NCBI GenBank assembly: GCA_043771035.1
Contig: JAYVHQ010000017.1
Span: 1 to 43,482, forward strand
From: Candidatus Kaiserbacteria bacterium
Lineage (GTDB): Bacteria; Patescibacteriota; Minisyncoccia; Phycocordibacterales; UBA918
Length of the DNA stretch: 43,482 nucleotides
Reading direction: 5' to 3'
Shown here: positions 4,801 to 26,180 of the stretch, piece after piece
Numbering within the stretch: the stretch's first letter is position 1
Layout: each line of letters starts with the position of its first letter
The notes under the pieces: model-generated
Databases searched by the model: none
What the model saw: the letters and a program-made list of their open reading frames with translations, nothing else
What the model was told of the DNA's origin: nothing
Translations under genes and position numbers: made by a program

Positions 4801-7800
4801 TCTGTGATAATGTGATGCTGCTAGTTAGATCAGACGTGTCTTTAATTCCAGCATTGGCTGACAAAAATGTAACATTGCCATCGATCACTCCACCACTACT
4901 GGTGGCAATATTTGTCGTATTATTTCCGTCGGTGAGATTGGCTGTATTAAACATATTCCAGTCATCATTTGCAGCACCAACGCTCGTCCACACACTAACC
5001 GCACTACAAGAAGTAATTTTTGGCCCATACTCGAGTTGATACTGTACAGCCGATGAAGTGGCTGAGCCTTCATTACTAATACCAATCCGTAACCTGATTG
5101 TGGAGCCGGCTCCATGTTCAGTGAGAAGCGTATTGACACTTCCGCCGGTAGCAGAAGAGGCTGTTGTTTCACTGCCGTTATCAGTCCGCCAATGATAACC
5201 AGTTTGGGCCAAAATTGCGCCTGATAACGTAGTCGTACCTGAAAGCAACACTGGTGTAGTCGGACCAACTGCGCCACTAGAAATAGTGACGTCATTACCT
5301 CCGTTACTAATTTCGATTTCGATTGTTTCGCCATTAGTAGCACCGCTCACGATATCAAACACTACATACACACACATCGCTTGAGTGGTAGTTATCGCTA
5401 CAGAACCAGAAAACGTCGAGCTTCCATTAATATCAGAAAAGCCATCGGTATCTGTTGCCCCAAATTGAAGTTCTGATCCAGCATATGATTCACTGACACA
5501 GTTGTAAGGTGCAGTGGTATCGAGGTCATACCGTAGTTTTATATTATCCAAACTACTCGTGGCATTAACCGTACCAGTTTCGGTGACGGTAATAGCTGTC
5601 ACGTTTCGGGAGCTAACATTTTCTGTGAACGAAAAAGATCCACCGATCATCAGATTTGTTGAGGGAATAACGGCCGAAGAAACTTGCGTCCCCGTTGTAC
5701 CAAGTGTTACATCTGCTGAGACCGTCACCGCTGCATATTGACTATATACAGGCAGAGGTGTGCCAGCGTTTGTTACTCTAAAACAATAGGTGGTTCCCTG
5801 TGAAGCTGATGATGAGGCTACGATAGAGTATTCGATTTCAGTAAAGTTTGTTGTAGCTAAAATCAGTCCTCCAGTCTGTGAAGTGGTATCCAATTGTCCA
5901 CCATTTGGCGTTAAAAAAGTTGTATTTTCATTTACCATTCCCCCGCTTCCCACCGTAATATCAGTTGTATTAGTGCCATTTATGACAAAACTTGAATCAG
6001 ACATACCCCACGCGTCATTCACGGCATTTACATCGGTCCAGCCAGTAGCTACTTCACATGTAGGCGCAGCTTCTGCATATTCCAACCTAAATTGCGTAAC
6101 TGGACTTGAAAGCGTTCCTTCGTTTGAAACTTGTACTCTTAAACGACGGGGTGTGTTTTGGAGTAACGCTGGTAATGGGGTGTCAGCGGTACCGAGGGTG
6201 GCTGAGGTAGCAGCCGTTTCGTTGCCGTTATCATTGCGCCAATGGTAGTGAGTCTGGGTTAAGGTATCGTTATTAATCACTGTCCCAGAGAGAAATGCTA
6301 CGGCAGTTGCAGGAGTAACTACTCCCCCACCTGAAACCAAAATGTCGACTGCGGGATTATTAACATACATTCGTAATGTAGAAGAACTTAAAGCTGAGTC
6401 TAATACATCAACCACGGTATACACACACATTGCCCGAACTGGACTAATATTTACCAAGCCATTGAAAGAAGAAACTCCATCACTACCACTAAAACCATTT
6501 ATATCAGTTGAACCAAATTGAGCTTCTAAACCAGAGTAGGATTCACTGACACAGTCATACGGCGTAGTGGTATCAATATCATACAAAACTTTTATATTTT
6601 TTATGGCGTTACTGGCGTCCACTGTGCCATTTTCTGAAATAGTAATATCTGTCACGTTACGGCTAACCTGATTTTCTTTTAGTAATATTGTGCCTCCAGT
6701 ATAAACATTAGTGGAACTCGCCGACACAGACGCAGTTGGGGTACCTAAAGTAGAAGCTTTTGTAACCGGCGCAATATCGGCTACGGTATTTCCAAAAATT
6801 TCGTCAGGATTAGTCCCGGGGTCTTCCCATGACGCATAAATACGTTCGTCACTCATGATGTTCATATCAAGACCATACATATCGGCAGTCACGGTATTAA
6901 CCGGTCCTCTCTCGGCACTCCAGGCAGACATGGCGCTCGTTGAGGTAGCGTAATAGACATTACCAGTAGTAGCAGTAGCGGGGGTTGTACGCAAAACGTA
7001 CGCTACGTACACCTCGCCTAGATTTACATCTAGGGATATAGCAACTCCATGTAAGCCTCTGGTTGTATTTGTAAATACATTTGCTGTTGCTGACCATGAA
7101 CCACTCACGTATTTTGCCGTTCTCACATCGTGGTCAAGTACCGTATAGTTATCATTATCAGCCGCATAGGCTAAATAGATATCTCCCGTTATCTGATCTT
7201 GTGTCAAAGCCATACCAACATCATAGGTAGCGCTGTGAACAGCGTTACTATCAACCGCTAACCAGCTACCAGACCAAGCTGTTCCATTCCAGACTTTTGA
7301 TCGAATATCAAAAGCAGAAATATCACGATTTACCAAAAGCATGTCACCTCCTAAAAGCGGCATTAAGATACTCCAGTCATTGGCCGCCTCAGTGTATGGC
7401 GTCGTAATTTCACCCCAACCACCAGTTGTATTACAGCTACTACTACACCTGACTACAAATGAATCCGAGACGGCAGGCGAAGTCATATAAAGCACGCCGT
7501 CAGTACCTTTAGAGATTGACTGTTCATTTGTTCCCGCGACATACACAGGAACTTGGCCGGAATTTACGATAGTACTGATGGGTGCCGACCCCAGTAACCT
7601 GGTATCACTAGTTGTATCGAGCCTGTTATACCAAAGATCGTCATTACCAACATCCATAGTTGAGATGTGAATGTTGGTTCCAGAGTCCCCGGGCGTCCAA
7701 CCGTCATACCACACAGCAATGCTGGTACAGTCAGTTTGAGCATCAACAATAACGGCGGCACTCCACGCATTACCACCGTTGGTAGTTTTACTATAGGAAC

Positions 7801-15254: not shown

Positions 15255-15750
15255 ATATTCTCTACGTTGTATTAGCCTACTATTGCAATCATATGCATGT
15301 ACAAAGACGCACTGACTACTAGATGATTACAATCAAAAACGGTAACTGGTCTCCACACCGATTACGTATATTGAATAATAAGCATACTTGCCTTAGAACG
15401 CCCGGCTGAAGGCCGTCTGGCTACACTGAGTAGCTCAAAGCACCATTATTGATACCCCCAAAACAAGTACCTAGTCATTGTAGCTTGATGAAAATTTTTT
15501 TAGAGATACTTATACACAAAAATTTTTAAAATACTAAAAAATCCATCATTCATTACCTGTAAAATTTTATAACGAACACATTATTACGAGATGTTACAAA
15601 ACCAACCTTAAATTGAATGGAAGCTTGAGCAGTTGAAACAAATAATTTGATACCAAACTGCTGGCTATTTGGTACGATGTCAGCAACACTATTTATATTT
15701 GCACTCGTTTCCAATAGGTGAACAGGTTGGTGTAGGAATTTTGTAAAATA

Positions 15751-15779
15751 TTGATTGTTAAACAATTTTATGTTTTAAT
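15751..15779 (+). promoter_or_regulatory. Candidate sigma70-type promoter for the plus-strand unit.
   Basis: The sequence is TTGATT (15751-15756), a 17-nt spacer, then TTTAAT (15774-15779), about 50 nt upstream of the ATG at 15828. This is pattern matching only. Confidence 0.3.
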
Positions 15780-15814
15780 CCCTAAGGTTACTTCCACTTT
15801 CAAGAAACAATCTC

Positions 15815-15820
15815 AAGGAG
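15815..15820 (+). promoter_or_regulatory. Shine-Dalgarno site.
   Basis: AAGGAG lies 7 nt upstream of ATG 15828. It is the strongest SD in the window. Most minus-strand genes have weak SDs or none. Confidence 0.55.
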
Positions 15821-15827
15821 TCAAAAA

Positions 15828-16400
15828 ATGGAAAGAGTTCCTACTGCAAAGGCAATGATCCTTAGTTTTATCGATAAGGGTATCGCTGAACCCACTTTTG
15901 CCCCAGTGTATTTGACCGCCAAACTCTCAGCAGTTGACGCAAAGAGCATACAAACTGATCTTTCACGCGCCGGCGAAAGTCTCTGGCACGGTCGAGCTTA
16001 TCATAGTAGGATGAAAGGAGATATTCACACTTACCCTACTATCGATCTTACCAAGTTCCCTTGGACGGGACGTGAAAGCGTCATGTTCGAATCAGTTCGC
16101 GACGGCACGCTTATGTCGGATATGCAGCAACAACTCGATGAAGCGCTCGCATCTCTACCTTTCCAAATACGACCGGTCAATGACAGTCGTGGGTTGTGGC
16201 TAGATTCCTTTAAAGATGAGGGGGATTTGAATCGGTACTTTTACTTTGAACTTTTCTGCAAATCCGAAATCCCTGAATGGATCACCGGCCTCGGCTCGAT
16301 GCGGATGAGTGGGTCATGGTATGTATTCCTCCCAAGCCCTTCACCAGACTGGATCTCATTCTTAAGATCAGTAAACTCAGCCGTACAAAAGCGGATTTAG
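15828..16400 (+). CDS. Hypothetical cytoplasmic protein (190 aa). It is the only convincing plus-strand gene.
   Basis: It has a good SD, no signal peptide and a mixed charged composition unlike the rest of the island. I recognise no family. Confidence 0.6.
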   Translation: MERVPTAKAMILSFIDKGIAEPTFAPVYLTAKLSAVDAKSIQTDLSRAGESLWHGRAYHSRMKGDIHTYPTIDLTKFPWTGRESVMFESVRDGTLMSDMQQQLDEALASLPFQIRPVNDSRGLWLDSFKDEGDLNRYFYFELFCKSEIPEWITGLGSMRMSGSWYVFLPSPSPDWISFLRSVNSAVQKRI

Positions 16401-16504
16401 AAAAACTGGCAAATGTTCCATCAGACGCAATCACTGTCAAGGGAATTGAAATCGCTAATCTTAAACAGCAGATTGAAGAAGCGCTTCGTCAAATTGCCGC
16501 TTGA
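16277..16504 (+). CDS. Overlapping -1-frame ORF (75 aa). It may be the true C-terminus of the previous gene after a frameshift, or a coupled small gene.
   Basis: It overlaps the last 124 nt of 15828..16400. There is no SD, and a TGA sits immediately before its ATG. The peptide ...KISKLSRTKADLEKLANVPSDAITVKGIEIANLKQQIEEALRQIAA looks protein-like. It ends 20 nt before the strong terminator. Confidence 0.35.
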   Translation: MDHRPRLDADEWVMVCIPPKPFTRLDLILKISKLSRTKADLEKLANVPSDAITVKGIEIANLKQQIEEALRQIAA

Positions 16505-16523
16505 TAGAAGTAATTCAGTTACA

Positions 16524-16557
16524 GGAGCCCCAGCACAGGGGCTCCTTTCTTTTGTTT
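16524..16557 (+). terminator. Rho-independent terminator of the plus-strand unit.
   Basis: GGAGCCCC-AGCACA-GGGGCTCC forms a perfect 8-bp GC-rich stem (16524-16545), followed by TTTCTTTTGTTT. Confidence 0.8.
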
Positions 16558-16593
16558 ATGGGCTATATTGTACGAAGTTAACGACACTCTATA

Positions 16594-16624
16594 AGCTTCG
16601 CCTAGGACTCTCCTAGGCGAAGCT
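16594..16624. repeat. Perfect 14-bp-arm palindrome AGCTTCGCCTAGGA-CTC-TCCTAGGCGAAGCT (copy A of the AGCTTCGCCTAGG repeat).
   Basis: Read directly from the sequence. The arms are exact reverse complements and each contains CCTAGG. Confidence 0.9.
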
Positions 16625-16801
16625 AGAAACCTACCGTGTTTTTTGTATGCTATACATCAGCAGAAGATTTGAGGTACTCTATGAACTGAACGTGGATTGC
16701 CACGCCTGCGGGCTCGCAAAGACGCTGGGAGCTTCGGAAAATAATACTTTACTGCTTAAAGTAAGCCAGCTCCGCTTAAGACTGACCTATGTAAATCTGT
16801 T

Positions 16802-16851
16802 AAAACTTTAGAAAATTAGTTTCATAAGCTTCGCCTAGGACTCTCCTAGGC
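16802..16851. repeat. Solo left end of the E-element (AAAACTTTAGAAAATTAGT) fused to a truncated copy B of the palindrome (AGCTTCGCCTAGGACTCTCCTAGGC).
   Basis: Positions 16802-16820 match 16976-16994 at 18 of 19 positions. Positions 16827-16851 are identical to the first 25 nt of copy A. Confidence 0.8.
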
Positions 16852-16917
16852 AGAATGGGCAAAATATGAACGTTGTTAGTTTCGCTTATCAATCGACATT
16901 TACTTAAGGACAGAATT

Positions 16918-16961
16918 AGCTTCGCCTAGGACATTTAGCTTCGCCTAGGACTCTCCTAGGG
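16918..16961. repeat. Copies C1 and C2 of the AGCTTCGCCTAGGAC repeat, 19 bp apart.
   Basis: Positions 16918-16932 read AGCTTCGCCTAGGAC. Positions 16937-16961 read AGCTTCGCCTAGGACTCTCCTAGGG. Confidence 0.85.
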
Positions 16962-16974
16962 AGTAGGCAGACAT

Positions 16975-17099
16975 TAAAACTTTATAAAATTAGTGCAATT
17001 CGAGGCAGGCAAGGAAAATCTTGCGAGCCGTACTTATTGTACGGTGAGTAAGATTTTACCGCAGCCTAACGAAGAAGTGTGCAATTTTATAAAGTTTTA
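16975..17099 (+). repeat. E-element copy E1, a 125-bp unit with 17-bp perfect terminal inverted repeats and a conserved internal hairpin. It is either MITE-like or a structured RNA.
   Basis: The ends read TAAAACTTTATAAAATT ... AATTTTATAAAGTTTTA. The internal part reads GCAAGGAAAATCTTGCGAGCCGTAC-TTATT-GTACGGTGAGTAAGATTTTACCGCAGC. The right end supplies part of the TAA stop (17097-17099) of the dockerin gene. Confidence 0.75.
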
Positions 17100-18212
17100 G
17101 CCGGTCCAGTTGAAAAGTAGGATAGAAAAGTCTTCAAGACTCACTCTTCCATTCGCATTGATATCAGCCGGTGGATTTGAGTCGCCGCCGGCACTTTGCC
17201 ACCAGAAGATGAGGATGGAGAAGTCGACGAGGTTTACTTTGCCGTCACGACTGAGGTCTGACGGTGAGGTGGTTTTGCCATCGACACCAACAAATAGCTG
17301 TACCGAGCTACTAAAACCACTCTGAGTTAAGAGAGGGGCGGTGCCAGAAACTGACCGGGCTTTAATAGTGTACTCGGCATTTCTTAGTCTGCTTGAATTA
17401 AAGTTTAGGGCGAATTTGCCGTCAGGTCCACTTTGAATCGACTCAACAATTTCACTATTATTAAAATGTACATCAACTTTGACTGACGGAATACTTTGGC
17501 CAGTAATGGCAATGATACTGCCGGGGATGACATTCGCGTTGGCCACAATCATGGTCGGTGGCAAGATAAGCCCGCTAACGTTCGTTACGGCCCCCTGGGT
17601 GACATCAAAGGTGTTATTGAGTGTAATGGAGCGTTTACCAGCGGAATCAAGCGCCCAGACGCCAAGCGTGGCCGCGCCTGGTGAAGCATTGGCTGCAAAT
17701 TCAAACCGGCCAGTACTATTGGCGCGGACAGAACCGATAGATTTAGTATCGAGTAAAAAATTTATTGTTTGATTAGGGTAACCAAGCCCGGTAACACTGA
17801 CTTGAGTGGCTCCTAATTCTTTGACACCTCCCCCACTACTACCGCCACCGCCAGAGGAACCGCCACCACCACTACCGGCTGGTTCGATCTTACACAAAGC
17901 CGAACAAAAGTCTAAACTGGTATTATTTCCGTCATCACACTCCTCCGTAAATTGTGTCTGTAAAACCCCGTCACCACAGTAAGGCCCATAGTTACAACTG
18001 ACCGTACACTGCCTGCCCGTAATGGTTGTACTGTAGACACCGGTCTCACCAGGAGCGTCACATTGTTCTGAGGCATCTACCAAACTATTACCACAAATAC
18101 TTAGGGTAATTGTTGTAGTCGCAACACCGACTGTTTCAGCGAACACAAATGGCGTACATGTAAAAATAATGACTACGAGCTGTAGTAATGAAAAAAGGGC
18201 AGGTAGTTTCAT
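17097..18212 (-). CDS. Secreted protein with Cys-rich repeats (Myxococcus-type CxxCDDGN repeats), a Gly/Ser linker, Ig-like domains and a C-terminal dockerin-like module.
   Basis: The signal peptide is MKLPALFSLLQLVVIIFTCTPFVFA/ETV. The Cys-rich repeats (about 17888..18095) read CGNSLVDASEQCDAPGE...C and YCGDGVLQTQFTEECDDGNNTSLDFCSALC. The linker is GSGGGGSSGGGGSSGGG. The dockerin-like module (17100..17261) reads DLSRDGKVNLVDFSILIFWW ... DINANGRVSLEDFSILLFNW. The gene starts 1 nt after the upstream stop. Confidence 0.8.
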   Translation of the reverse strand: MKLPALFSLLQLVVIIFTCTPFVFAETVGVATTTITLSICGNSLVDASEQCDAPGETGVYSTTITGRQCTVSCNYGPYCGDGVLQTQFTEECDDGNNTSLDFCSALCKIEPAGSGGGGSSGGGGSSGGGVKELGATQVSVTGLGYPNQTINFLLDTKSIGSVRANSTGRFEFAANASPGAATLGVWALDSAGKRSITLNNTFDVTQGAVTNVSGLILPPTMIVANANVIPGSIIAITGQSIPSVKVDVHFNNSEIVESIQSGPDGKFALNFNSSRLRNAEYTIKARSVSGTAPLLTQSGFSSSVQLFVGVDGKTTSPSDLSRDGKVNLVDFSILIFWWQSAGGDSNPPADINANGRVSLEDFSILLFNWTG

Positions 18213-18213
18213 A

Positions 18214-19179
18214 TTAGCTAATCAGCGAATCATCCTTACGTCCTTGACGTCTGTAGTAAATGAAATACAAAACAGCGATTATAAAGGCAAATAATGGCAG
18301 TAACACCGAAATCTTATGCGGGATTGAAAGACCACCAAAACCGTACCCGGCAGTTTGTAGAGTGCCATACGCCAAGATACTGAGATTAAGTTCTCCTTCT
18401 TGTTTCACCTCATCATTATTAAAAATTGTATAACGTGCCATATAACTACCTGCTGGTAGTTTAGTTGGTAAGTACGCAGTAATTTCTTCGGTTGCATACG
18501 GTGCAATCTTTTTTAGCCTACCGCTATGTTTTGTCTCTTCGAGTAAAACTGCTCCCGTTCTATCATAAATTCTAAATTGAACTTTCGAAGGTGCGATATC
18601 TACGTTACCGGTATTTTCGAGCGACATCTTGAAATTGATTTTTCCAGGGAAAAATAACCAGCCGAGTTTATGTCCCGCATCAAGATCAAGAACATCAATT
18701 TTTCGCACTCTAAAATCCTCGATTACACGATCAATCACATTGAGATTAATATCAACTTGGGCTCCAAGAGAAATACTGACAACTCCTTCAGCTACCTGAT
18801 CATCGGTCGGTTGTGTCCTGATACGAATCTTTCCTTCATATTCACGGTACGCGGCATCAGCTGGAACTTTAACTCGTACAGTCATGGCGACTTTTTGTTC
18901 ACCACGCGGCATAAGTATAGTTGTCCCTTCAACAATTTCTATCCAGTCTTGAATTTCTGGAGCATCAACCATAATCTGAGCATTCAGTGGTGCGTTAGGG
19001 TCACCACGTACGAGCAGTATCTGCTGCTCGTACGTTGAGTTACGGGTAAGACTGGTATTACGAACATACGGTGGAGTGATACCAAAACTGGCGCTCGCAA
19101 CCAATGTGCCAAACGCAAAATAAAGTATGACAACGAGCGAGCTCAATTGAAATAATGATGTGCAGGTGAGTGACTTCAT
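18214..19179 (-). CDS. Surface-complex anchor-like protein, paralog 3. It has a signal peptide, two beta-sandwich-like domains, a C-terminal TM helix and a basic tail.
   Basis: The signal peptide is LSSLVVILYFAFGTLVASA/SFG. Domain 1 ends in ...AYREYEGKIRIRTQP. Domain 2 contains KMSLENTGNVDIAPSKVQFRIYD...LPAGSYMARYTIFN. The TM is ISVLLPLFAFIIAVLYFIYY followed by RRQGRKDD. The layout matches paralogs 1 and 2. Confidence 0.8.
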   Translation of the reverse strand: MKSLTCTSLFQLSSLVVILYFAFGTLVASASFGITPPYVRNTSLTRNSTYEQQILLVRGDPNAPLNAQIMVDAPEIQDWIEIVEGTTILMPRGEQKVAMTVRVKVPADAAYREYEGKIRIRTQPTDDQVAEGVVSISLGAQVDINLNVIDRVIEDFRVRKIDVLDLDAGHKLGWLFFPGKINFKMSLENTGNVDIAPSKVQFRIYDRTGAVLLEETKHSGRLKKIAPYATEEITAYLPTKLPAGSYMARYTIFNNDEVKQEGELNLSILAYGTLQTAGYGFGGLSIPHKISVLLPLFAFIIAVLYFIYYRRQGRKDDSLIS

Positions 19180-19207
19180 GCGAATGATACTATTATCAAA
19201 AATATTT

Positions 19208-19253
19208 CAATAAAAAGCAATAACCACCGGTCTAATAGCGGTGGTTATTGCTT
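19208..19253 (-). terminator. Strong rho-independent terminator after the 631-aa gene.
   Basis: A perfect 15-bp stem pairs AAGCAATAACCACCG (19215-19229) with CGGTGGTTATTGCTT (19239-19253) around a 9-nt loop. On the minus strand it is followed by TTTTATTG. Confidence 0.8.
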
Positions 19254-19271
19254 CAATTTGAAATGTTTATT

Positions 19272-21167
19272 CTACCAACTCAAAGGTGCAGAGACTGCTC
19301 CAGTGAAAGTGTTTTGCCCCGTGTACGACCCAGCAAGAGTAATTGCTGCTGGTACAGCGATACCCCAGAAGGTCTGGCCAGTTGACGGTGTAGAGGTACT
19401 TATTGGTTTTGGAATTTGATTAAGTAGTGTTAGTGGCGAAGACGTTGGCGCTAACGATACTCCTGCACCATACGCTACAGCTGATGTAGCGTATTTTTGC
19501 TCACTCTGAGGGATGGTTGAGGTAGCAGACACGCGACACGGGTTGGCTACAGAATACGTACCACACATTGAATCCCCTCCGAGTAACTGGTTTAGTCCTG
19601 TATTACCGAGTACTCGTAATGTTGTTGAGGCACTAAGGGTTGGCATATTTGTACCAGGCTCGAGCTGCGTGTAAGCAATGAGGTTTGTGAGCAAGCCAAT
19701 AGCGACCAAACCATTTAACTCCACAGGACTGGTTGAAGTGGACATAGATCCAGTGGCTGAGTTGTTATCAACTCCAGATACTCCAGCTGCCCAGGTTTGA
19801 GCAAAGAATGGAGTGTCCGTTGATGTGCCGTTTGTTGGGTCAGCAATAAACCAAAGTGGAAACGTACAGTTATAAATAATTGTGTCATCTGCTCCACCGG
19901 CTGTACAGCTAGTAGTTGAAGCTGTACAGGCCAGGTTCCAAGTTGAGGTGGCGACACCGCTTGGGTAACAGTTGTTAGGATTATAACTACCAGCTGAACC
20001 GTTACATGAAGAGGTACCCACTCCTGAACGGAATACTGAGGCAACATAACCGGTAATCTCGTCCGCATTTCCGCCACCGACCGCATCACAACTATTGGCA
20101 TCAGCTACAACGTACGACATTGTAAAGCCAGTTGTTTGACCACCAGGGTTTGATAACGTGATGTTCGTCCCGCCGTTAAGACTCAAAGTAGCACCGGCAA
20201 CTGTTGGCGCAACATTACTAACAGTATACTGAACGTTTACACCCTGAGCTCCACCAGTCGCACTATGCCCGTGCTGATCAAAAATATAAGGGAAAGCATT
20301 GTATGTACTTGCATCTTGCATAATGGCTGCTAACACTCTAGAAGTTGTTGCGTTTGTGAGCGAACCTGGTACAGAGGAAGAGGCGACTGTATCACCAGCT
20401 CCACACAAGTTAGTGGTGGTACTGTATGAAGCTGAACCGCAAACTACTAGGAAAATTGTGTCTTCTGCATCAACGATGTCGGGGTCAGTAGAGGTAGAGA
20501 GAAATTGTACTGTTCCGCCAGGAGCTGTTGCTCCACCGTTAGCAAAGGTTGTAAAGACGGGCCTTCGGTTTACGTTAAAAGGTGAACTATTTGTAGCGGT
20601 GGTTCCTTGAGACGAAGTAGTGCTGCAGCGTGGATTCACTGGATCATCGTCACATACCCATCCGTACCAGATGTTAGACTCAGAGAAAGGGGCCACCTCG
20701 GTAGTGGTAGTAGCTGCTCGAGCTTGGTTACCACTGATAGTAGAAGTTGAGACTGCCCAACGCGTACCCGCAGCACAGACTGGCGGCGCAGTACCAAGCG
20801 TTGAGGTTGACATCATAGGTGTTGGGGTAGCTGAGGTGCTACATAAAATCAAGAAATATGGTGCTCCGTTAGCATCCGTTGCTGTACCAATCCATGAGAC
20901 AGTGTTGCCTGAATTGGAGGGGGTCGTCGTTGAAGACTCAATCTGTTCACGGGCCTCCTGCCCCACTACCCACACTGGTGGGGTGTTAAGTACTGTCAAA
21001 GTAGTGGTGGCCGTACCTGACTGTGCTGATGCGATTTGTAACTCTGTTTTACCAATATTTAAGATAAAAACAAAGGCAAAGATTAATACTCCTGATAAGG
21101 CTGTTAATATGGTTATTTTTCCAGCAGTCTCTACATACTGCGGCAGTTCTTGTTTGTTGTACGTCAT
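19272..21167 (-). CDS. 631-aa Thr/Ser/Cys-rich secreted protein with an N-terminal signal anchor and a class-2 C-terminal module shared with the giant ORF.
   Basis: The N-terminal TM is ITILTALSGVLIFAFVFILNI. There are many paired Cys residues. There is no C-terminal anchor, and the protein ends ...FWGIAVPAAITLAGSYTGQNTFTGAVSAPLSW. Confidence 0.85.
   Translation of the reverse strand: MTYNKQELPQYVETAGKITILTALSGVLIFAFVFILNIGKTELQIASAQSGTATTTLTVLNTPPVWVVGQEAREQIESSTTTPSNSGNTVSWIGTATDANGAPYFLILCSTSATPTPMMSTSTLGTAPPVCAAGTRWAVSTSTISGNQARAATTTTEVAPFSESNIWYGWVCDDDPVNPRCSTTSSQGTTATNSSPFNVNRRPVFTTFANGGATAPGGTVQFLSTSTDPDIVDAEDTIFLVVCGSASYSTTTNLCGAGDTVASSSVPGSLTNATTSRVLAAIMQDASTYNAFPYIFDQHGHSATGGAQGVNVQYTVSNVAPTVAGATLSLNGGTNITLSNPGGQTTGFTMSYVVADANSCDAVGGGNADEITGYVASVFRSGVGTSSCNGSAGSYNPNNCYPSGVATSTWNLACTASTTSCTAGGADDTIIYNCTFPLWFIADPTNGTSTDTPFFAQTWAAGVSGVDNNSATGSMSTSTSPVELNGLVAIGLLTNLIAYTQLEPGTNMPTLSASTTLRVLGNTGLNQLLGGDSMCGTYSVANPCRVSATSTIPQSEQKYATSAVAYGAGVSLAPTSSPLTLLNQIPKPISTSTPSTGQTFWGIAVPAAITLAGSYTGQNTFTGAVSAPLSW
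19275..20215 (-). other. Class-2 C-terminal module of the 631-aa protein, homologous to 26210..27025.
   Basis: Several segments align between the two proteins. LSLNGGTNITLSNPGGQTT pairs with VTLNGGLDINLTPGTTT. NNCYPSG pairs with NNCYKGD. IAYTQLEPGTN..ASTTLRVLGN pairs with INYGSLALGGN..ASTTVTNVGN. IPQSEQKYATS pairs with IPANEQRFATS. IPKP....FWGIAVPA pairs with LAKP....YWGVAVPA. Confidence 0.55.
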
Positions 21168-21267
21168 AATAATTTACCTATTCATTTTAGCTGATATTCA
21201 CCCGACTATACCCAAGTTATACACACACTTACTCACTCGTTATCAAAATAATTTATACTTAATTGAG

Positions 21268-21436
21268 CAAACTTTCAGAAATGAGTGCAGTGCTAGGAGC
21301 GCAAGGACATTTTCTGTAGGCGTACTGATTGTACGACGAAAGAAAATGTACCGCAGCGGCGGTCCAGCGATTTTCCTGAGGATGAAAAATCGGGACAGAA
21401 ATTCAGAATAGTCGCTATCGCTCGTTTCTTCATTCC
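21268..21436 (+). repeat. E-element copy E2 (~170 bp) in the permease/631-aa gene gap.
   Basis: The left end reads CAAACTTTCAGAAATGAGTGCAGTGCTAGGAGCGCAAGGA. The hairpin is ACATTTTCTGTAGGCGTAC-TGATT-GTACGACGAAAGAAAATGT. Next comes ACCGCAGCGGCGGTCCAGCGATTTTCCTGAGGATGAAAAATCGGGACAGAAATTC. The right end CGCTCGTTTCTTCATTCC pairs with GAAATGAGTG at the left end. Confidence 0.75.
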
Positions 21437-21467
21437 ACAACTAATGTGCGATTTATGGAAGTTTGAT

Positions 21468-22676: not shown

Positions 22677-22747
22677 TTGTTACATTATGACACGTACACA
22701 ACACGTAACTAAGGACAACTCACAGTTTAATTGAAAAGGTAAGTGAT

Positions 22748-22902
22748 ATTGAAAACGAGTGTAGTTGGTGGTGAGAGGAGTTACTAAATGTCACGCAACC
22801 TTGCGGACAGCGACTTGAGTCAGACACTCCGGTTGAGCTAGCTCACTCTTAGAGCGAACGTTCCATCGATTGGCTCTAGGAAAGAGCAAATCGGGAACAA
22901 AG
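22748..22902 (+). repeat. Degenerate E-element-like copy (E3) in the ATPase/permease spacer.
   Basis: ATTGAAAACGAGTGTAG (22748-22764) resembles the E left-end motif CAGAAACGAGTG. CTCTAGGAAAGAGCAAATCGGGAACAAAG (22874-22902) resembles CCTAGGGAAGAAAAAATCGGGACAGAAAT of E4b. The similarity is weaker than for the other copies. Confidence 0.35.
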
Positions 22903-22936
22903 CATAAACATACAACCTTGCGGTTGTTGTTATGCT
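22901..22936 (-). terminator. Hairpin with a GCAA tetraloop overlapping the ATPase stop codon. It may be an intra-operon attenuator or stabiliser.
   Basis: The minus strand reads AGCATAA-CA-ACAACC-GCAA-GGTTGT-ATGT-TTATGCT, followed by TTGTTCCCGATTTGC. That is two 6-bp helices with an internal loop. The U-tract is weak. Confidence 0.3.
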
Positions 22937-24252
22937 TTATAGCTGACGTCTACCCCTTGGGCAATCAACTTCTCAAAATACCTTGTCAGCTCATCGGCTT
23001 CACTTTCTGATAGTGCCAACCCCCGTTGTCTAATACCCGCCATGAGACGCGTATTAAACTCCAGTTCTTCTATCACACCGGTCACTCTATCAGCAATCAG
23101 CTCAACTAAATTCGTGTCTTGTTCTTTGGATAATTTAATCCTAAATATTTCCATTAAATGATCTTTGAGCCGCTCAGCCAACTTATGCTGACTAAAAAAT
23201 ATCCCGGGATTATCTTTTTTGGCCCGAAAGCGTCTAATATCATCTGATTGATGAATCATCAACTCAGATTTTTTTGCCATAGCCTTGGCAATTGCTTCTG
23301 GCATCTCTACCCCGCCCTGCTCACTCGGCAAGATTAGGGTTTTAATAAACGCGTCGTGATCTATTTTACCTTTAATAAAATGGCCGACCGCACGCTCTAG
23401 TTTATTAAGCTGATTAAAGGTGTAGTCTTGGGTCAGGTAATTAACCATACTTTTTACCCGTAGAGTATCTACTGAATCATACGGGAAAAGACGAGCCAGC
23501 TGTTCGAGCTCAGTCACGATTGTCTCCCCTTCTCGTACCGGTTTGATTTGTTTACGCTGCGGGTTTACTACTTCACGCACGATAAATCCATCTTTAAGAT
23601 AATACACCCGGTGCGCGTAACTCAGGTGCGCCGCATTGTGAGACACCATAATAATGGTTCGCCTATCAAAGGTATTGATCTCATCAATTTTGTCCATTAC
23701 CTGCTGTGTTGAAACCGAGTCGAGGTTACCTGTTGGTTCGTCTGCCAAAAGAATCTTAGGGTCATTTACCATTGATCTGGCTACTGACACACGTTGTTGC
23801 TGCCCTCCTGAGAGCATTGACGGGATTTTGTGCGACACGTGCCCTACTCCAAACCGATCAAGCAAAGACTGCGCCCGTCTGTCGCGGGTTGGTTTATCAA
23901 CGTCACAGAAAATTTGCGGTAGGGCGACGTTGTCGAGTACCGATAAAGAACCTATCAAGTTAAACGATTGAAAAATAATACCCATCACATACCGCTGAAA
24001 ATACACCCGCTCACTCGGTGGATAGGAGTAAATATCATCACCACGAATAAGGAGTGTCCCATCACCCGGTGGCAGTGAACCTTGGATAGAATACATCAGC
24101 GTTGATTTTCCTGACCCAGAGGCGCCGAAAAGAATAATGTACTCGCCTTCATAAATGTCAGTATTAACATTTTGCAGAGCTCGAAATTCGTTTTGTTTAC
24201 CTTTATTATAAATAATAGAAAGGTCTCGACAGGTGATAAAGGGCTTGGCCAT
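22930..24252 (-). CDS. ABC transporter ATP-binding protein (MacB/LolD/FtsE-like NBD) with an unusual ~210-aa helical C-terminal extension.
   Basis: Walker A is GASGSGKST. The Q-loop region is IFQSFNL. The signature is LSGGQQQRVSVARS. Walker B is ILLADEPTGNLD. The H-loop is MVSHN. After about residue 228 (22933..23571) a helical region with two similar halves has no NBD counterpart. Confidence 0.85.
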   Translation of the reverse strand: MAKPFITCRDLSIIYNKGKQNEFRALQNVNTDIYEGEYIILFGASGSGKSTLMYSIQGSLPPGDGTLLIRGDDIYSYPPSERVYFQRYVMGIIFQSFNLIGSLSVLDNVALPQIFCDVDKPTRDRRAQSLLDRFGVGHVSHKIPSMLSGGQQQRVSVARSMVNDPKILLADEPTGNLDSVSTQQVMDKIDEINTFDRRTIIMVSHNAAHLSYAHRVYYLKDGFIVREVVNPQRKQIKPVREGETIVTELEQLARLFPYDSVDTLRVKSMVNYLTQDYTFNQLNKLERAVGHFIKGKIDHDAFIKTLILPSEQGGVEMPEAIAKAMAKKSELMIHQSDDIRRFRAKKDNPGIFFSQHKLAERLKDHLMEIFRIKLSKEQDTNLVELIADRVTGVIEELEFNTRLMAGIRQRGLALSESEADELTRYFEKLIAQGVDVSYKA

Positions 24253-24360
24253 ATTTTTATATTATCGCACGCACGGCAACTGTTCTATCATGCAACCCCC
24301 AGTTTTAAGATATCAATACAAATTATTAAAATAAATAATTCAAAAGTGATCAAAGAGCTA

Positions 24361-24470
24361 AGACTTTCAGAAACGAGTGAAATTCGAGGCACGCAAGGAA
24401 ATTATTGTGAGCCGTACCCATCGTACGGTGAGCAATGATGACACGCTACGGCGCTTACGTGATTTAACTC
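24361..24470 (+). repeat. E-element copy E4a.
   Basis: AGACTTTCAGAAACGAGTGAAATTCGAGGCACGCAAGGAAATTATTGTGAGCCGTAC-CCATC-GTACGGTGAGCAATGATGA is nearly identical to E1 in the block ATTCGAGGCA(G/C)GCAAGGAAA and in GAGCCGTAC...GTACGGTGAG. Confidence 0.7.
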
Positions 24471-24486
24471 AAGTGAGTTAGTCATC

Positions 24487-24724
24487 TAAGACCTCAAAAA
24501 TTGAGTGCAGTGCTAGGAGTGAGAAAGCAAACTGCTTTGCTTTCGTAAGACTCATTGAGAGATTTTGCAAAAATACCCAATGAGTGGACAGCTTCTGTAA
24601 GAAGCAAGGAAATTACCGCAGCGGTCCAGCGATTTTTCCTAGGGAAGAAAAAATCGGGACAGAAATTCATCATCTTGAAAAGCAATCCCATTGCTTTTCA
24701 ACTACGCTCGTTTCTTCATTCACC
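24487..24724 (+). repeat. E-element copy E4b. The central hairpin is replaced by other perfect hairpins.
   Basis: It shares TGAGTGCAGTGCTAGGAG (18/18) with E2. It also shares GGTCCAGCGATTTT(T)CCT..GGA.GAAAAA(A)TCGGGACAGAAATTCA and the right end CGCTCGTTTCTTCATTC with E2. The core is collapsed to GCAAGGAAATTACCGCAGC. Extra hairpins are GAAAGCAAA-CTGC-TTTGCTTTC, ACTCATTG...CAATGAGT and GAAAAGCAAT-CCC-ATTGCTTTTC. Confidence 0.7.
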
Positions 24725-24737
24725 AATTTTGGTGGTC

Positions 24738-26180
24738 TTATTTACCGATGTTCTTCAACCAACCGAATGTACTCTGGAAGTTTTCCAAAATCAAATCGAT
24801 AATATTCTTTTCCTGAATTGGAGTGAACAGTACGAAGTTCTCTGACTGAATAGTGTTCTTGGCTTCGTCAGTACAATTGAGCCAAAATTGGTAGACAGTG
24901 GCGGGGGCGAAGTCAACAATTACCTCTACGTGGGTAGTTGAATACTGGACGTTTTCTTGTTCAATCGTGATGGGTTCTACGCCGCCGGCCACCCCTTCAC
25001 GATAGGTCATAAGACAACTGGCTGATTCATCAGTGTTCCACTCGACAATCGTCTGAATCCGGGATTCTCCACCGGGGAAAATAGTTGATTCGTTGGTCAC
25101 GTTTGTAATAATCGGCGGCGCGATATCACGGACGGTAATAAATTGAATTGGCTGGCTACGGACGCGATCTCCACCCGAGTTTTCTGCAATCACAAACGCC
25201 ACGTAGCGCGTACCCAGCGTCAGGTCCGCTAAGCGCATTTGGTGCGTTGTAGCTAAGGTCGGGCGACCAACTGAGTTTTGCACACCGGTGGTTAAGTCTT
25301 GAAATTCAATCAGGGCTTTGGCTGGCACAGTAGTATCCCACGCTAAAGTCGCGGCGTTTTCTTCTACTTTTACAATCCGCAGGTTACGTATATCGGGTAA
25401 AGATGCTTTGGTTCTAAAGGTGTAGTTGCGACTTTCACCGGTGATGCTGTACGTATCTTTAGACAGAACTTTAAAGGTATACTCCGTAAATGGCTCAAGT
25501 CCAATTAATCTAATTTCATGATCACTTGATGGCTCACCAGTTGATGACTGAGAAAATTCGTAGGTACCGTCAAAGCCCTGAGTTTTAGAAAATTGCACTT
25601 CTGAAGTAGCAGGTCTGTCGGTTACCCACTTCACCAGTGCAGTGTTTGTTTCTGGGATCACTGTTGGTGGCCCAACAATCGCTAAGACTTGGGAGATACC
25701 TTTGATGACCTTGATGGTTTCATCAATAATCTCTTGTAGTTTCGGGATACTGGTGATCTGCTTTATTTGTTCGATTATTTCTTTGGTTGGCTCAGAATCA
25801 CTCTTCCCCTCCCCGATAGCCGGTGTACCATCTGTTTGGATTTTGTAGTCAGCTGAAATGCCCTGGTTTCCTTCGAGGTCAGCTGATACGACACGGAAAT
25901 AGTAGGTTCGGCCGGGTTCGAGATTATTTAAGGTGACTGAGTGAGTGGTTCTGTCAGCTACTGGTACACGCACAATACCGTAGTCAGCTTGCAGGCCGTA
26001 GTTTACCGCCGAGTCAGCTTTTTCACTCGTTTCCCAGGTGAGCGTCACACTCTCCTTGGTCGTAGTACCAATTTTTACATTACTAATCTCCGGCGCTTTT
26101 GTGTCATTTGATTGAGCAATAACTGTCTGACTACTAAGAAGAGCCAGACACACCACTACAAATAAGAAGTACCCGCGCAT
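24738..26180 (-). CDS. Secreted protein with four FN3-like (purple-acid-phosphatase-N-like) domains and a helical linker.
   Basis: The signal peptide is MRGYFLFVVVCLALLSSQTVIA/QS. Repeats include VTLTWETSEKADSAVNYG...HSVTLNNLEPGRTYYFRVVS, ALVKWVTDRPATSEVQF...LEPFTEYTFKVLS, ATLAWDTTVPAKALIEF...LTLGTRYVAFVIA and a fourth copy. The gene starts 26 nt after the giant ORF stop. Confidence 0.8.
   Translation of the reverse strand: MRGYFLFVVVCLALLSSQTVIAQSNDTKAPEISNVKIGTTTKESVTLTWETSEKADSAVNYGLQADYGIVRVPVADRTTHSVTLNNLEPGRTYYFRVVSADLEGNQGISADYKIQTDGTPAIGEGKSDSEPTKEIIEQIKQITSIPKLQEIIDETIKVIKGISQVLAIVGPPTVIPETNTALVKWVTDRPATSEVQFSKTQGFDGTYEFSQSSTGEPSSDHEIRLIGLEPFTEYTFKVLSKDTYSITGESRNYTFRTKASLPDIRNLRIVKVEENAATLAWDTTVPAKALIEFQDLTTGVQNSVGRPTLATTHQMRLADLTLGTRYVAFVIAENSGGDRVRSQPIQFITVRDIAPPIITNVTNESTIFPGGESRIQTIVEWNTDESASCLMTYREGVAGGVEPITIEQENVQYSTTHVEVIVDFAPATVYQFWLNCTDEAKNTIQSENFVLFTPIQEKNIIDLILENFQSTFGWLKNIGK

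Follow-up and report, generated by a model that had tools for sequence, protein, structure and literature searches.

The intergenic gaps of a 43,482-nucleotide stretch of DNA from a Candidatus Kaiserbacteria bacterium (contig JAYVHQ010000017.1, referred to here as the window) contain copies of an undescribed family of small folded mobile repeats of Patescibacteria, which is absent from Rfam and from the literature that we searched. The + strand of the window carries six pieces of this family, named E1, E2, E3, E4a, E4b and a solo end, and all genes between positions 17097 and 43438 are on the - strand. A sequence-only reading of the window had listed these pieces together with their shared blocks, and all of them were found in the sequence at or near the coordinates that it gave. 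In our judgment, there is about an even chance that the repeats are non-autonomous mobile elements which are recognized through a single-strand fold.

The elements range in size from about 80 to 260 nt, with a minimal unit of about 80 nt. Near the 3' end lies a deeply conserved module of two hairpins, hp1 and hp2. The first hairpin, hp1 (GUCC-AG-CGAUUUUCYC-loop-GRGAAAAAAUCG-GGAC), consists of an outer stem of 4 to 5 bp, a conserved 5' AG bulge, an inner stem of at least 10 bp and a loop ending in AGG or GG, and hp2 reads AUAAAU-UC-NNNN-AUAGUCGCUACGCUC-nUU-N'N'N'N'-UC-AUUYA, with AUAGUCGCUACGCUC as its loop. The long forms, the window copies among them, add a 5' end (..ACTTTC AGAAAYGAGTGCA), optional hairpin modules and a 3' strand beyond hp2 which is complementary to the 5' end. 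The optional modules include a central hairpin between GCAAGGA and the ACCGCAGC block, which carries G-U pairs and a tandem G-A motif. An extra hairpin within the hp2 loop, with compensatory changes, was found in E4b and at loci L009, L010, L025, L035, L055, L058 and L073. The inverted ends of the long copies are complementary over 17 to 22 bp; inverted ends are altogether absent from the short forms. Copies of the hairpin-only kind, E1 for example, correspond to composites from which the hp1-hp2 unit is cleanly missing, and at locus L096 the unit is precisely present versus absent between two otherwise duplicated blocks.

The pairing of three helices was compared with that of shuffled alignments, in tests which ignore the relatedness of the copies. 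For the 3' module (44 copies), 96.2% of the pairs were standard, compared with 88.9% after shuffling, and double-change cells numbered 62 against 12.9, a value reached in none of 500 shuffles. Seven of the nine hp2 pairs and both pairs of a loop mini-helix covaried. For the central hairpin (38 distinct copies), standard pairs reached 91.8% against 69.3% and double-change cells 139 against 45, with compensatory changes at 13 of 17 pairs. The closing helix formed by the terminal "inverted repeat" (22 copies) had 89% standard pairs against 73.9%, with compensatory changes at 15 of 17 pairs. When the partner strand was slid by 1 to 3 columns, only 26 to 56%, 35 to 51% and 33 to 54% of the positions, respectively, were paired. 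Given the slid controls and the many distinct pair types, chance is a very unlikely explanation. Because the search pattern dictated the lower stem of hp1, this stem is uninformative in the pattern-found set; copies found only by the covariance model showed compensatory hp1 changes (GATTCG/CGAATC, GAATTCG/CGAATTC, AACTTTTGC/GCAAAAGTT and GTCT/AGAC). Thus, the covariation of hairpins proposed from the window, which is weak with three copies, became strong with 38 distinct copies, and all three helices were significant. The outer 8 to 12 bp of the terminal ends differ between copies, and the covarying ends include TAAAACTTTC/GGAAGTTTTA, TGAAACTGCC/GGCAGTTTCA and AGAATCATC/GGTGATTCT. The terminal inverted repeats are a closing helix that changes sequence while staying complementary, not conserved transposase-type ends.

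The central hairpin also indicated which strand is folded. On the + strand, the 38 copies contained 70 G-U or U-G cells and 3 A-C cells, and one position was G-U in 29 copies. The adjacent appositions were G-A in 30 of the 38 copies and A-G in all 38, forming tandem sheared G-A pairs. On the opposite strand, the same positions become A-C and pyrimidine-pyrimidine mismatches. The bias toward G-T on the plus strand, which the sequence-only reading had pointed out, therefore holds across the family, and together with the near-invariant tandem G-A it makes the + strand, antisense to the window genes, the folded strand. Folding energies also favored the + strand in 17 of 22 long copies, with a mean difference of 4.7 kcal/mol; for E2, the folding energy was -64.7 kcal/mol (z -4.65) on the + strand and -49.1 kcal/mol (z -2.46) on the - strand.

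As the hairpins are maintained by compensation on one strand only, a single-stranded form, probably RNA, is of importance to the working or the spread of the elements. In DNA hairpins, too, no mismatches are more stable than G-T and tandem G-A, so the strand bias does not settle whether RNA or single-stranded DNA is folded. It is unlikely, in our view, that the family is a single-stranded-DNA element moved by an HUH/Y1 enzyme, in the manner of REPIN-RAYT or of the IS200/IS605 PATEs, but there are several points of likeness. Strand-specific hairpins in DNA would tolerate G-T and G-A just as well, and the family is non-autonomous, extragenic and multi-copy. REPINs and repetitive extragenic palindrome (REP) mosaics (BIMEs), which are mobilized by RAYT, share these three traits and are likewise short, mosaic and modular, with hairpins built from inverted halves and kept by selection, and Bertels and Rainey reportedly described covarying hairpin arms in REPINs in 2011. 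Like the family, the IS200/IS605 PATEs and the TnpB omega-RNA have subterminal hairpins specific to one strand, derivatives that are non-autonomous and, at one end, a structured RNA beside the flank. However, no module consensus of the family contains a GTAG-headed REP unit, and the family folds into a much larger structure of several branches, in which a two-hairpin module is invariant; it also has long target duplications. The hosts are Patescibacteria, and no tnpA, RAYT or tnpB gene was found in the 130 loci of 8 kb around copies. IS200/IS605 elements insert beside a fixed tetra- or pentanucleotide without duplicating the target. The long, variable duplications and varied targets of the family argue against insertion of that type, and the family also differs in having no Rfam match and a weak replication-strand bias (the sign of the GC skew, taken in element orientation, split 56:37, p=0.06).

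The expectation that a covariance model would recover further copies was borne out. An exact-pattern scan for CAGCGATTTT-N6-20-AAAATCGGGAC, using one genome per species, returned 76 loci, 66 of them with genuine copies, and the same scan of metagenomes returned 65 loci; viral contigs gave no match to the module pattern. A covariance model of the 3' module, based on 44 distinct copies, matched 84 times in the genome loci, 73 times in the metagenome loci and 3 times in the window, and it also picked up additional subfamilies in gene clusters related to that of the window. Pattern scan and model together gave about 160 copies of the 3' module in 131 loci. The hosts were nearly all labelled Kaiserbacteria, Paceibacteria/Parcubacteria, Saccharibacteria or "Patescibacteria group", with 3 to 8 pattern-exact copies per metagenome-assembled genome (MAG) in genomes of about 1 Mb. 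Modules from the same MAG were 81 to 96% identical, and up to 100%, with the sequence 150 to 700 nt away at background identity. The hp2 loop and the AG bulge were kept across MAGs labelled as different classes. Genuine copies also lay in a few MAGs with odd labels, namely Patiriisocius (8 loci), Azotimanducaceae and Acidimicrobiales (L002, L003, L016, L020, L021, L046, L061, L072, L027 and L074); the GC content of the odd-label loci was 41 to 45%, which makes mis-binning or mislabelling likelier than spread outside Patescibacteria.

As for known families, Rfam 15 (including group II intron, HEARO/omega-RNA and ribozyme models) gave no match at the gathering score in the whole window, and at E<=10 no match between 16500 and 25000 overlapped any element. 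The comparison with Rfam, which could have removed the novelty, thus left the family without a counterpart. No description of the family was found in the searched literature on MITEs (miniature inverted-repeat transposable elements), repeats and structured RNAs of Patescibacteria, Saccharibacteria and Parcubacteria.

The window copies and their parts are listed in Table 1. A repeat search of the window recovered a 77-nt repeat family at 16975, 21267 and 24359, as well as the blocks common to E2 and E4b, the solo end and the inverted repeat of E1. The 20-mer AAAATCGGGACAGAAATTCA and the left-end motif each occurred twice in the window against an expected 0.00, which excludes chance. Three of the first-proposed ends were moved. 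Pairing of a 3' strand with the 5' end extended E2 to 21466 instead of 21436 and E4b to 24740 instead of 24724: the 3' end of E2, GGAAGTTTG, is complementary to CAAACTTTC at 21268, and the closing helix of E4b reads TAAGACC.../...GGTCTTA. E3, which had been called weak and was thought to end at 22902, runs to 22939 and proved to be a true diverged member when scored with a covariance model from other genomes. The ends of E1 form the perfect 17-bp complement already described (16975-16991 with 17083-17099), and its final 3 nt are the stop codon of open reading frame (ORF) 17097-18212, which E1 had been noted to abut. Similarly, the final 3 nt of E4b are the stop codon of ORF 24738-26180, and the stop codon of ORF 22930-24252 sits 10 nt inside the end of the E3 module. 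E4a is 81% identical to E1 over 77 nt, and its hairpin was included in the central-hairpin alignment. The absence of the central hairpin from E4b was seen again in the sequence, which reads GCAAGGAAATTACCGCAGC at this place.

Table 1. Copies of the repeat family in the window, their parts and one putative target duplicate
Feature	Position	Strand	Evidence or remark
Solo 5'-end fragment TTAAAACTTTAGAAAATTAGT	16800..16820	+	95% identity to E1 left end
E1, hairpin-only: closing helix, central GA hairpin and ACCGCAGC block, without 3' module	16975..17099	+	
E1 central hairpin AAAATCTT GCGAG CCGTAC-TTATT-GTACGG TGAGT AAGATTTT	17015..17057	+	in central-hairpin alignment with covarying pairs
Decayed copy of MacB-like gene 3' end; putative upstream target duplicate	21228..21244	+	moderate similarity only
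E2, complete composite	21268..21466	+	covariance model, folding, closing-helix pairing
E2 closing helix, 5' strand	21268-21287	+	
E2 central hairpin	21307-21349	+	
E2 ACCGCAGC block	21350-21357	+	
E2 3' two-hairpin module (hp1 + hp2)	21359..21437	+	covariance model 86.8 bits, E=3.7e-21
E2 closing helix, 3' strand	21449-21466	+	
E3, diverged composite copy	22748..22939	+	covariance model 40.8 bits, E=7.4e-9; compensatory changes in hp1
E3 3' module	22858-22939	+	overlaps stop codon of ORF 22930-24252
E4a, left end and central hairpin; without 3' module and without matching 3' closing strand	24359..24486	+	
E4b, composite without central hairpin, with two other hairpin modules	24487..24740	+	covariance model 57.6 bits
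E4b 3' module	24621-24721	+	extra hairpin 24675-24701 within hp2 loop

Relatives of the window's gene cluster were collected via the ABC ATPase. The gap between the MacB gene and the next gene, which is 300 nt long and contains E2 in the window, was empty in L085 (58 nt), L087 (74 nt) and L088 (84 nt), and held an element of another subfamily in L086 (259 nt). The gap between the ABC and MacB genes was 1 nt in L088 and 207 to 422 nt elsewhere. Other assemblies of the same strain had identical gaps with no polymorphism, and an odd "-" ORF in L080 was merely a call on a truncated contig. The comparison with relatives thus revealed the presence/absence polymorphism which the sequence-only reading had considered, but not a fixed short target-site duplication, as the duplications described below are 10 to 46 nt long.

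Across the family, the copies are dispersed at unrelated loci, often at gene ends or tRNA-Ser 5' ends. Relative to the flanking genes, their orientation was (-,-) in 22 cases, (+,+) in 11, convergent in 7 and divergent in 4; the earlier observation that copies lie between co-oriented genes holds in the window but is only local, since both orientations occur elsewhere. Many short forms have the stop codon of a convergent gene 1 to 12 nt inside their 3' end. The reverse complement of this end (TAAATGA / TGAATGA) gives stop codons in two frames, which probably explains the tolerance of insertions at gene ends.

Mobility and inverted ends agree with the earlier description of the elements as MITE-like, but that description falls short on conserved transposase-type ends, as the closing helix covaries. 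An ordinary DNA MITE that has terminal inverted repeats, targets TA and is cut and pasted by an IS630/Tc1-mariner-like transposase would explain the polymorphism, the 17 to 22 bp inverted ends on long copies and the TA...TA that bounds most long copies (E1, E4, L070, L025, L029, L063, L057, L008, L018, L043 and L071). On the other hand, TA is self-complementary and cannot be told apart from an extension of the helix, and the comparison of E2 with the empty sites does not correspond to a simple TA insertion. The short forms have no inverted ends, yet they have inserted with long duplications, and no transposase was found in the examined loci. A classical DDE MITE is difficult to reconcile with the variable, covarying ends, with the short forms without inverted ends and with the 70:3 strand asymmetry, which has no role if the mechanism acts on double-stranded DNA, and we consider this explanation improbable.

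ERIC, Correia (NEMIS), RUP and BOX of enterobacteria, Neisseria and pneumococcus are also MITE-like intergenic repeats, and BOX is modular (A/B/C), as is the Patescibacteria family. The sequences of the family are, however, unrelated to theirs; its ends covary with a strong G-U asymmetry, its module is conserved across class labels, and its duplications are long and variable instead of TA. Once transcribed, ERIC, Correia, RUP and BOX fold into long stem-loops, and they can affect the processing of mRNA. Since the window copies are antisense to the genes, their complements would be present in read-through mRNA, folded into long and almost perfect hairpins, and by analogy with Correia and ERIC, a side effect on mRNA processing is plausible.

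We then analyzed the flanks of the elements by seeking a copy of the sequence past the 3' end within 330 nt upstream. Significant duplications were found for about 12 of 62 genome copies and 8 of 47 metagenome copies, with scores of 10 to 32 compared with at most 12 in shuffles. In both of these independent sets, the downstream duplicate started at offset -5 to +1 of the model 3' end in nearly all cases. The duplications were 10 to 46 nt long, the duplicated segment lay 60 to 300 nt from its twin, and 5 to 170 nt of unrelated "filler" separated the upstream duplicate from hp1. The duplicated sequence was a gene 3' end at L059 (33 nt), L003 (about 40 nt) and L088 (15 nt, in three copies around two tandem elements), and the first 11 codons of a yebC-like gene at L053 (33 nt). 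It was a tRNA-Ser 5' end at L014 (33 nt), L151 (46 nt), L095, L127, L094 and L109 (23 nt, exact), L108 (14 nt), and L013 and L074 (about 10 to 17 nt), and a tRNA-Thr 5' end at L052 (12 nt). At the tRNA targets, the junction was always near tRNA nucleotide +10. In the window, the decayed copy of the MacB-like gene 3' end to the left of E2 is common to the window, L092 and L113, and it directly abuts the sequence found past the stop codon in the empty sites of the relatives. Although the match is only moderate, E2 would fit the same duplication scheme. Up to three tRNA 5' ends were stacked at L095 and L108, and ARAGORN assigned an odd "act" anticodon to some of the targeted tRNA genes. A diversity-generating retroelement with template and variable repeats was rejected: the differences between the duplicated segments are not adenine-specific.

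Because the structured part directly adjoins 10 to 46 nt that are duplicated from the end or the promoter region of a nearby gene, the family could be taken for a guide-RNA scaffold (omega-RNA or tigRNA-like) in which the "duplicated" segments are guides against nearby genes. CPR (candidate phyla radiation) bacteria with TIGR-Tas and TnpB-type systems have been described (10.64898/2026.09.09.750476), and the stem-loop tigRNAs of such hosts resemble the family in having stem-closed units with sheared G-A pairs. However, the elements have no box C/D pair, spacer-pair architecture or array; no tas (Nop) or tnpB/iscB gene was found in the window or beside the 130 loci, and the Rfam omega-RNA and HEARO models do not match. 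The copies are dispersed beside housekeeping genes, and the distance of the duplicate from its twin is what insertion produces. A guide-RNA scaffold is thus very improbable, and TIGR-Tas itself was rejected, as the architecture of the family does not match that reported and no Nop-domain protein is encoded in the window.

The precise 3' junction, the ragged 5' side, the variable duplications and the conserved structured 3' part are the products expected of target-primed reverse transcription. For a mobile element recognized through its single-strand fold, trans-acting machinery would recognize the fold and not the primary sequence of the ends, and the + strand would be single-stranded at one stage of multiplication. 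We favor an RNA copy, reverse-transcribed into staggered breaks in a retroposon/SINE-like manner (SINE, short interspersed nuclear element), over a single-stranded DNA intermediate. The + strand RNA would be defined by the closing helix and the hp1-hp2 3' module, and its reverse transcription at breaks would leave the precise 3' junction, the ragged 5' ends and the 10 to 46 nt duplications. Nevertheless, we give only a fairly low probability to the specific proposal of a SINE-like retroposon, in which a reverse transcriptase with its gene elsewhere in Patescibacteria genomes would copy the folded + strand RNA into staggered breaks of the chromosome. SINEs and other non-long-terminal-repeat retroposons share with the family its non-autonomous nature, structured 3' part, precise 3' junction, variable or truncated 5' side and variable duplications. 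In contrast to SINEs, no partner reverse transcriptase, internal promoter or A-tail was found for the family, and it includes hairpin-only copies without the 3' module. We know of no SINE-like retroposon in bacteria.

Several results weigh against a mobile element of this kind. The coding duplicates differ only synonymously: all 6 differences at L059 and all 5 at L003 are at third codon positions, those at L053 are Ser AGT versus TCA and His CAC versus CAT, and those at L088 are confined to third positions and the stop codon. Fresh duplication followed by decay does not explain this pattern. The best account may be that the remnant contiguous with the native flank is periodically overwritten by homologous recombination with element-free relatives, where this sequence is a working gene end; homology-facilitated illegitimate recombination and Campbell-type integration of excised circles are alternatives. 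The hairpin-only copies (E1, E4a and others) are multi-copy despite having no 3' module, which would not be expected if only the 3' end were recognized. Taken by itself, the 3' module gives an ambiguous strand signal (G-U 20 versus A-C 12), and one of its column pairs is A-C in 36 copies. All-against-all clustering of ORFs in the 8-kb loci revealed no protein family that recurs beside the 130 loci, other than syntenic housekeeping genes, and a crude motif scan for reverse transcriptases in 1.15 Mb of flanks found nothing. Nine upstream same-strand ORFs are housekeeping genes by Pfam (ThrRS, IleRS, ValRS, YceG and similar), and the elements contain no conserved promoter, as scans for the sigma-70 consensus were no better than background. 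Finally, elements at the same site in relatives (L019/L024; the window, L092 and L113) persist with different internal modules, which could reflect a host function.

The last point leads to a rival explanation, that of a host-serving, cis-acting structured RNA between genes, which is dispersed by duplication and acts in mRNA processing, as a stabilizing or insulating hairpin, or as an antisense regulator of gene 3' ends. The elements evolve in a structure-preserving way, with RNA-like G-U, tandem G-A and expansion hairpins of variable length; they persist at orthologous sites with changing sequence (also L035/L045, upstream of gyrB), and they keep the hp2 loop and AG bulge across class labels. 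But a host RNA accords poorly with the missing promoter, with both orientations relative to the flanking genes, with flanks of unrelated housekeeping genes and with empty sites that have tightly coupled genes in some of the closest relatives. Tandem and nested insertions and target duplications are, moreover, typical of selfish elements. On balance, we find a host-serving RNA rather unlikely.

The search for a partner of the mobile element gave no candidate in the material covered. The window proteins include no transposase, integrase, reverse transcriptase or Nop-domain protein, and in about 1.15 Mb of loci there was no inverted left-end pair enclosing a gene and no transposase with the same ends. 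With nothing mobilizing in the flanks, the elements are non-autonomous. At L073, an Exo_endo_phos (AP-endonuclease-like) ORF of 258 aa (6797-7573) lies immediately upstream of the element on the same strand. The AP-endonuclease fold is that of the endonuclease of LINE-type (long interspersed nuclear element) retroposons; the ORF, judged by its Pfam domain, is probably an ordinary exonuclease III.

Other candidates for the nature of the elements were rejected. An intrinsic terminator does not fit, as no T run follows hp1 or hp2 on either strand and terminator scans were at background. A small ORF on the minus strand, or a Shine-Dalgarno sequence with ATG, is incompatible with an hp1 loop whose length varies by 1 to 3 nt between copies. 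The resemblance of GAGCCGUA / UACGG to group II intron domain V comes without the bulge, the upper helix, the GNRA loop or an Rfam match. Integron attC sites were excluded by ends (...AAACTTTC / GGAAGTTT... and ...CGCTCGTTTCTTCATTC) that have no GTTRRRY and by the position of the copies beside housekeeping genes.

A foreign sequence of about 65 nt (..GCACCCCAAGGGTATTTCCATTTTTATAATCGACTGTGGTC..) sits exactly between hp1 and hp2 at L003 (3710-3775), L046 (1153-1206) and L054 (3801-3851), and a different sequence (GTGTAAATCACAGAGCGWAGCGAC...) sits inside hp1 of L023 and L044. To judge from their placement, these inserts would be nested insertions by other small elements.

The minus-strand cluster of the window encodes, according to Pfam, a 5743-aa protein, an fn3/purple-acid-phosphatase-like protein, an ABC ATPase, a MacB/FtsX permease and three more proteins, one of which contains Big_6, DUF4215 and dockerin domains. 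The intergenic gaps are 485, 253 and 300 nt long, and 1842 nt lie beyond the last gene. Four of the eight contigs with an identical ABC ATPase end in or beside the E4 gap (L081-L084, other assemblies of the window strain), which fits with repeats that break short-read assemblies. Sequences resembling an extended -10 box (TGTCATAAT-like) precede several start codons by 10 to 20 nt (window 22690-22700 and 24260-24275; gaps of L085-L088), and the cluster genes may thus have their own promoters and very short leaders. An inverted repeat with 30-nt arms at 19200-19268, between ORFs 18214-19179 and 19272-21167, resembles a bidirectional terminator and gave only weak, sub-threshold Rfam matches (for example, STnc240 with 33 bits against a cut-off of 55).

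The 1842-nt gap (15255-17096) contains opposite-strand ORFs at 15828-16400 (190 aa) and 16277-16504 with no Pfam match, and a terminator-like hairpin at 16523-16546. An unrelated second repeat, the palindrome AGCTTCGCCTAGGACTCTCCTAGGCGAAGCT, occurs four times in this gap (at 16591, 16824, 16915 and 16934, in the region 16591-16961). At 15700-15718 on the - strand, there is an inverted left-end-like fragment (TGCACTCGTTTCCAATAGG on the + strand), which faces away from the solo end at 16800; the two do not form a transposon-like pair. The matching gap in relatives is 474 to 978 nt long and differs in content, which makes the gap a variable insertion hot spot.

The genomes of Patescibacteria are tiny and streamlined, and few mobile elements are known from them. 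A family with several copies per genome of about 1 Mb, which evolves like an RNA and is common to MAGs labelled Kaiserbacteria, Paceibacteria and Saccharibacteria, was therefore unexpected in these bacteria. It is a new family of structured nucleic acids outside Rfam with sufficient covariation for modelling, and it may mark hot spots of recombination or insertion at gene ends and tRNA-Ser 5' ends. The family belongs to the known class of structured non-autonomous bacterial repeats, but its mechanism is potentially much more novel. If the RNA route is true, it would be the first SINE-like retroposon in bacteria, and if the elements instead serve the host, they would represent a widespread regulatory RNA of the CPR.

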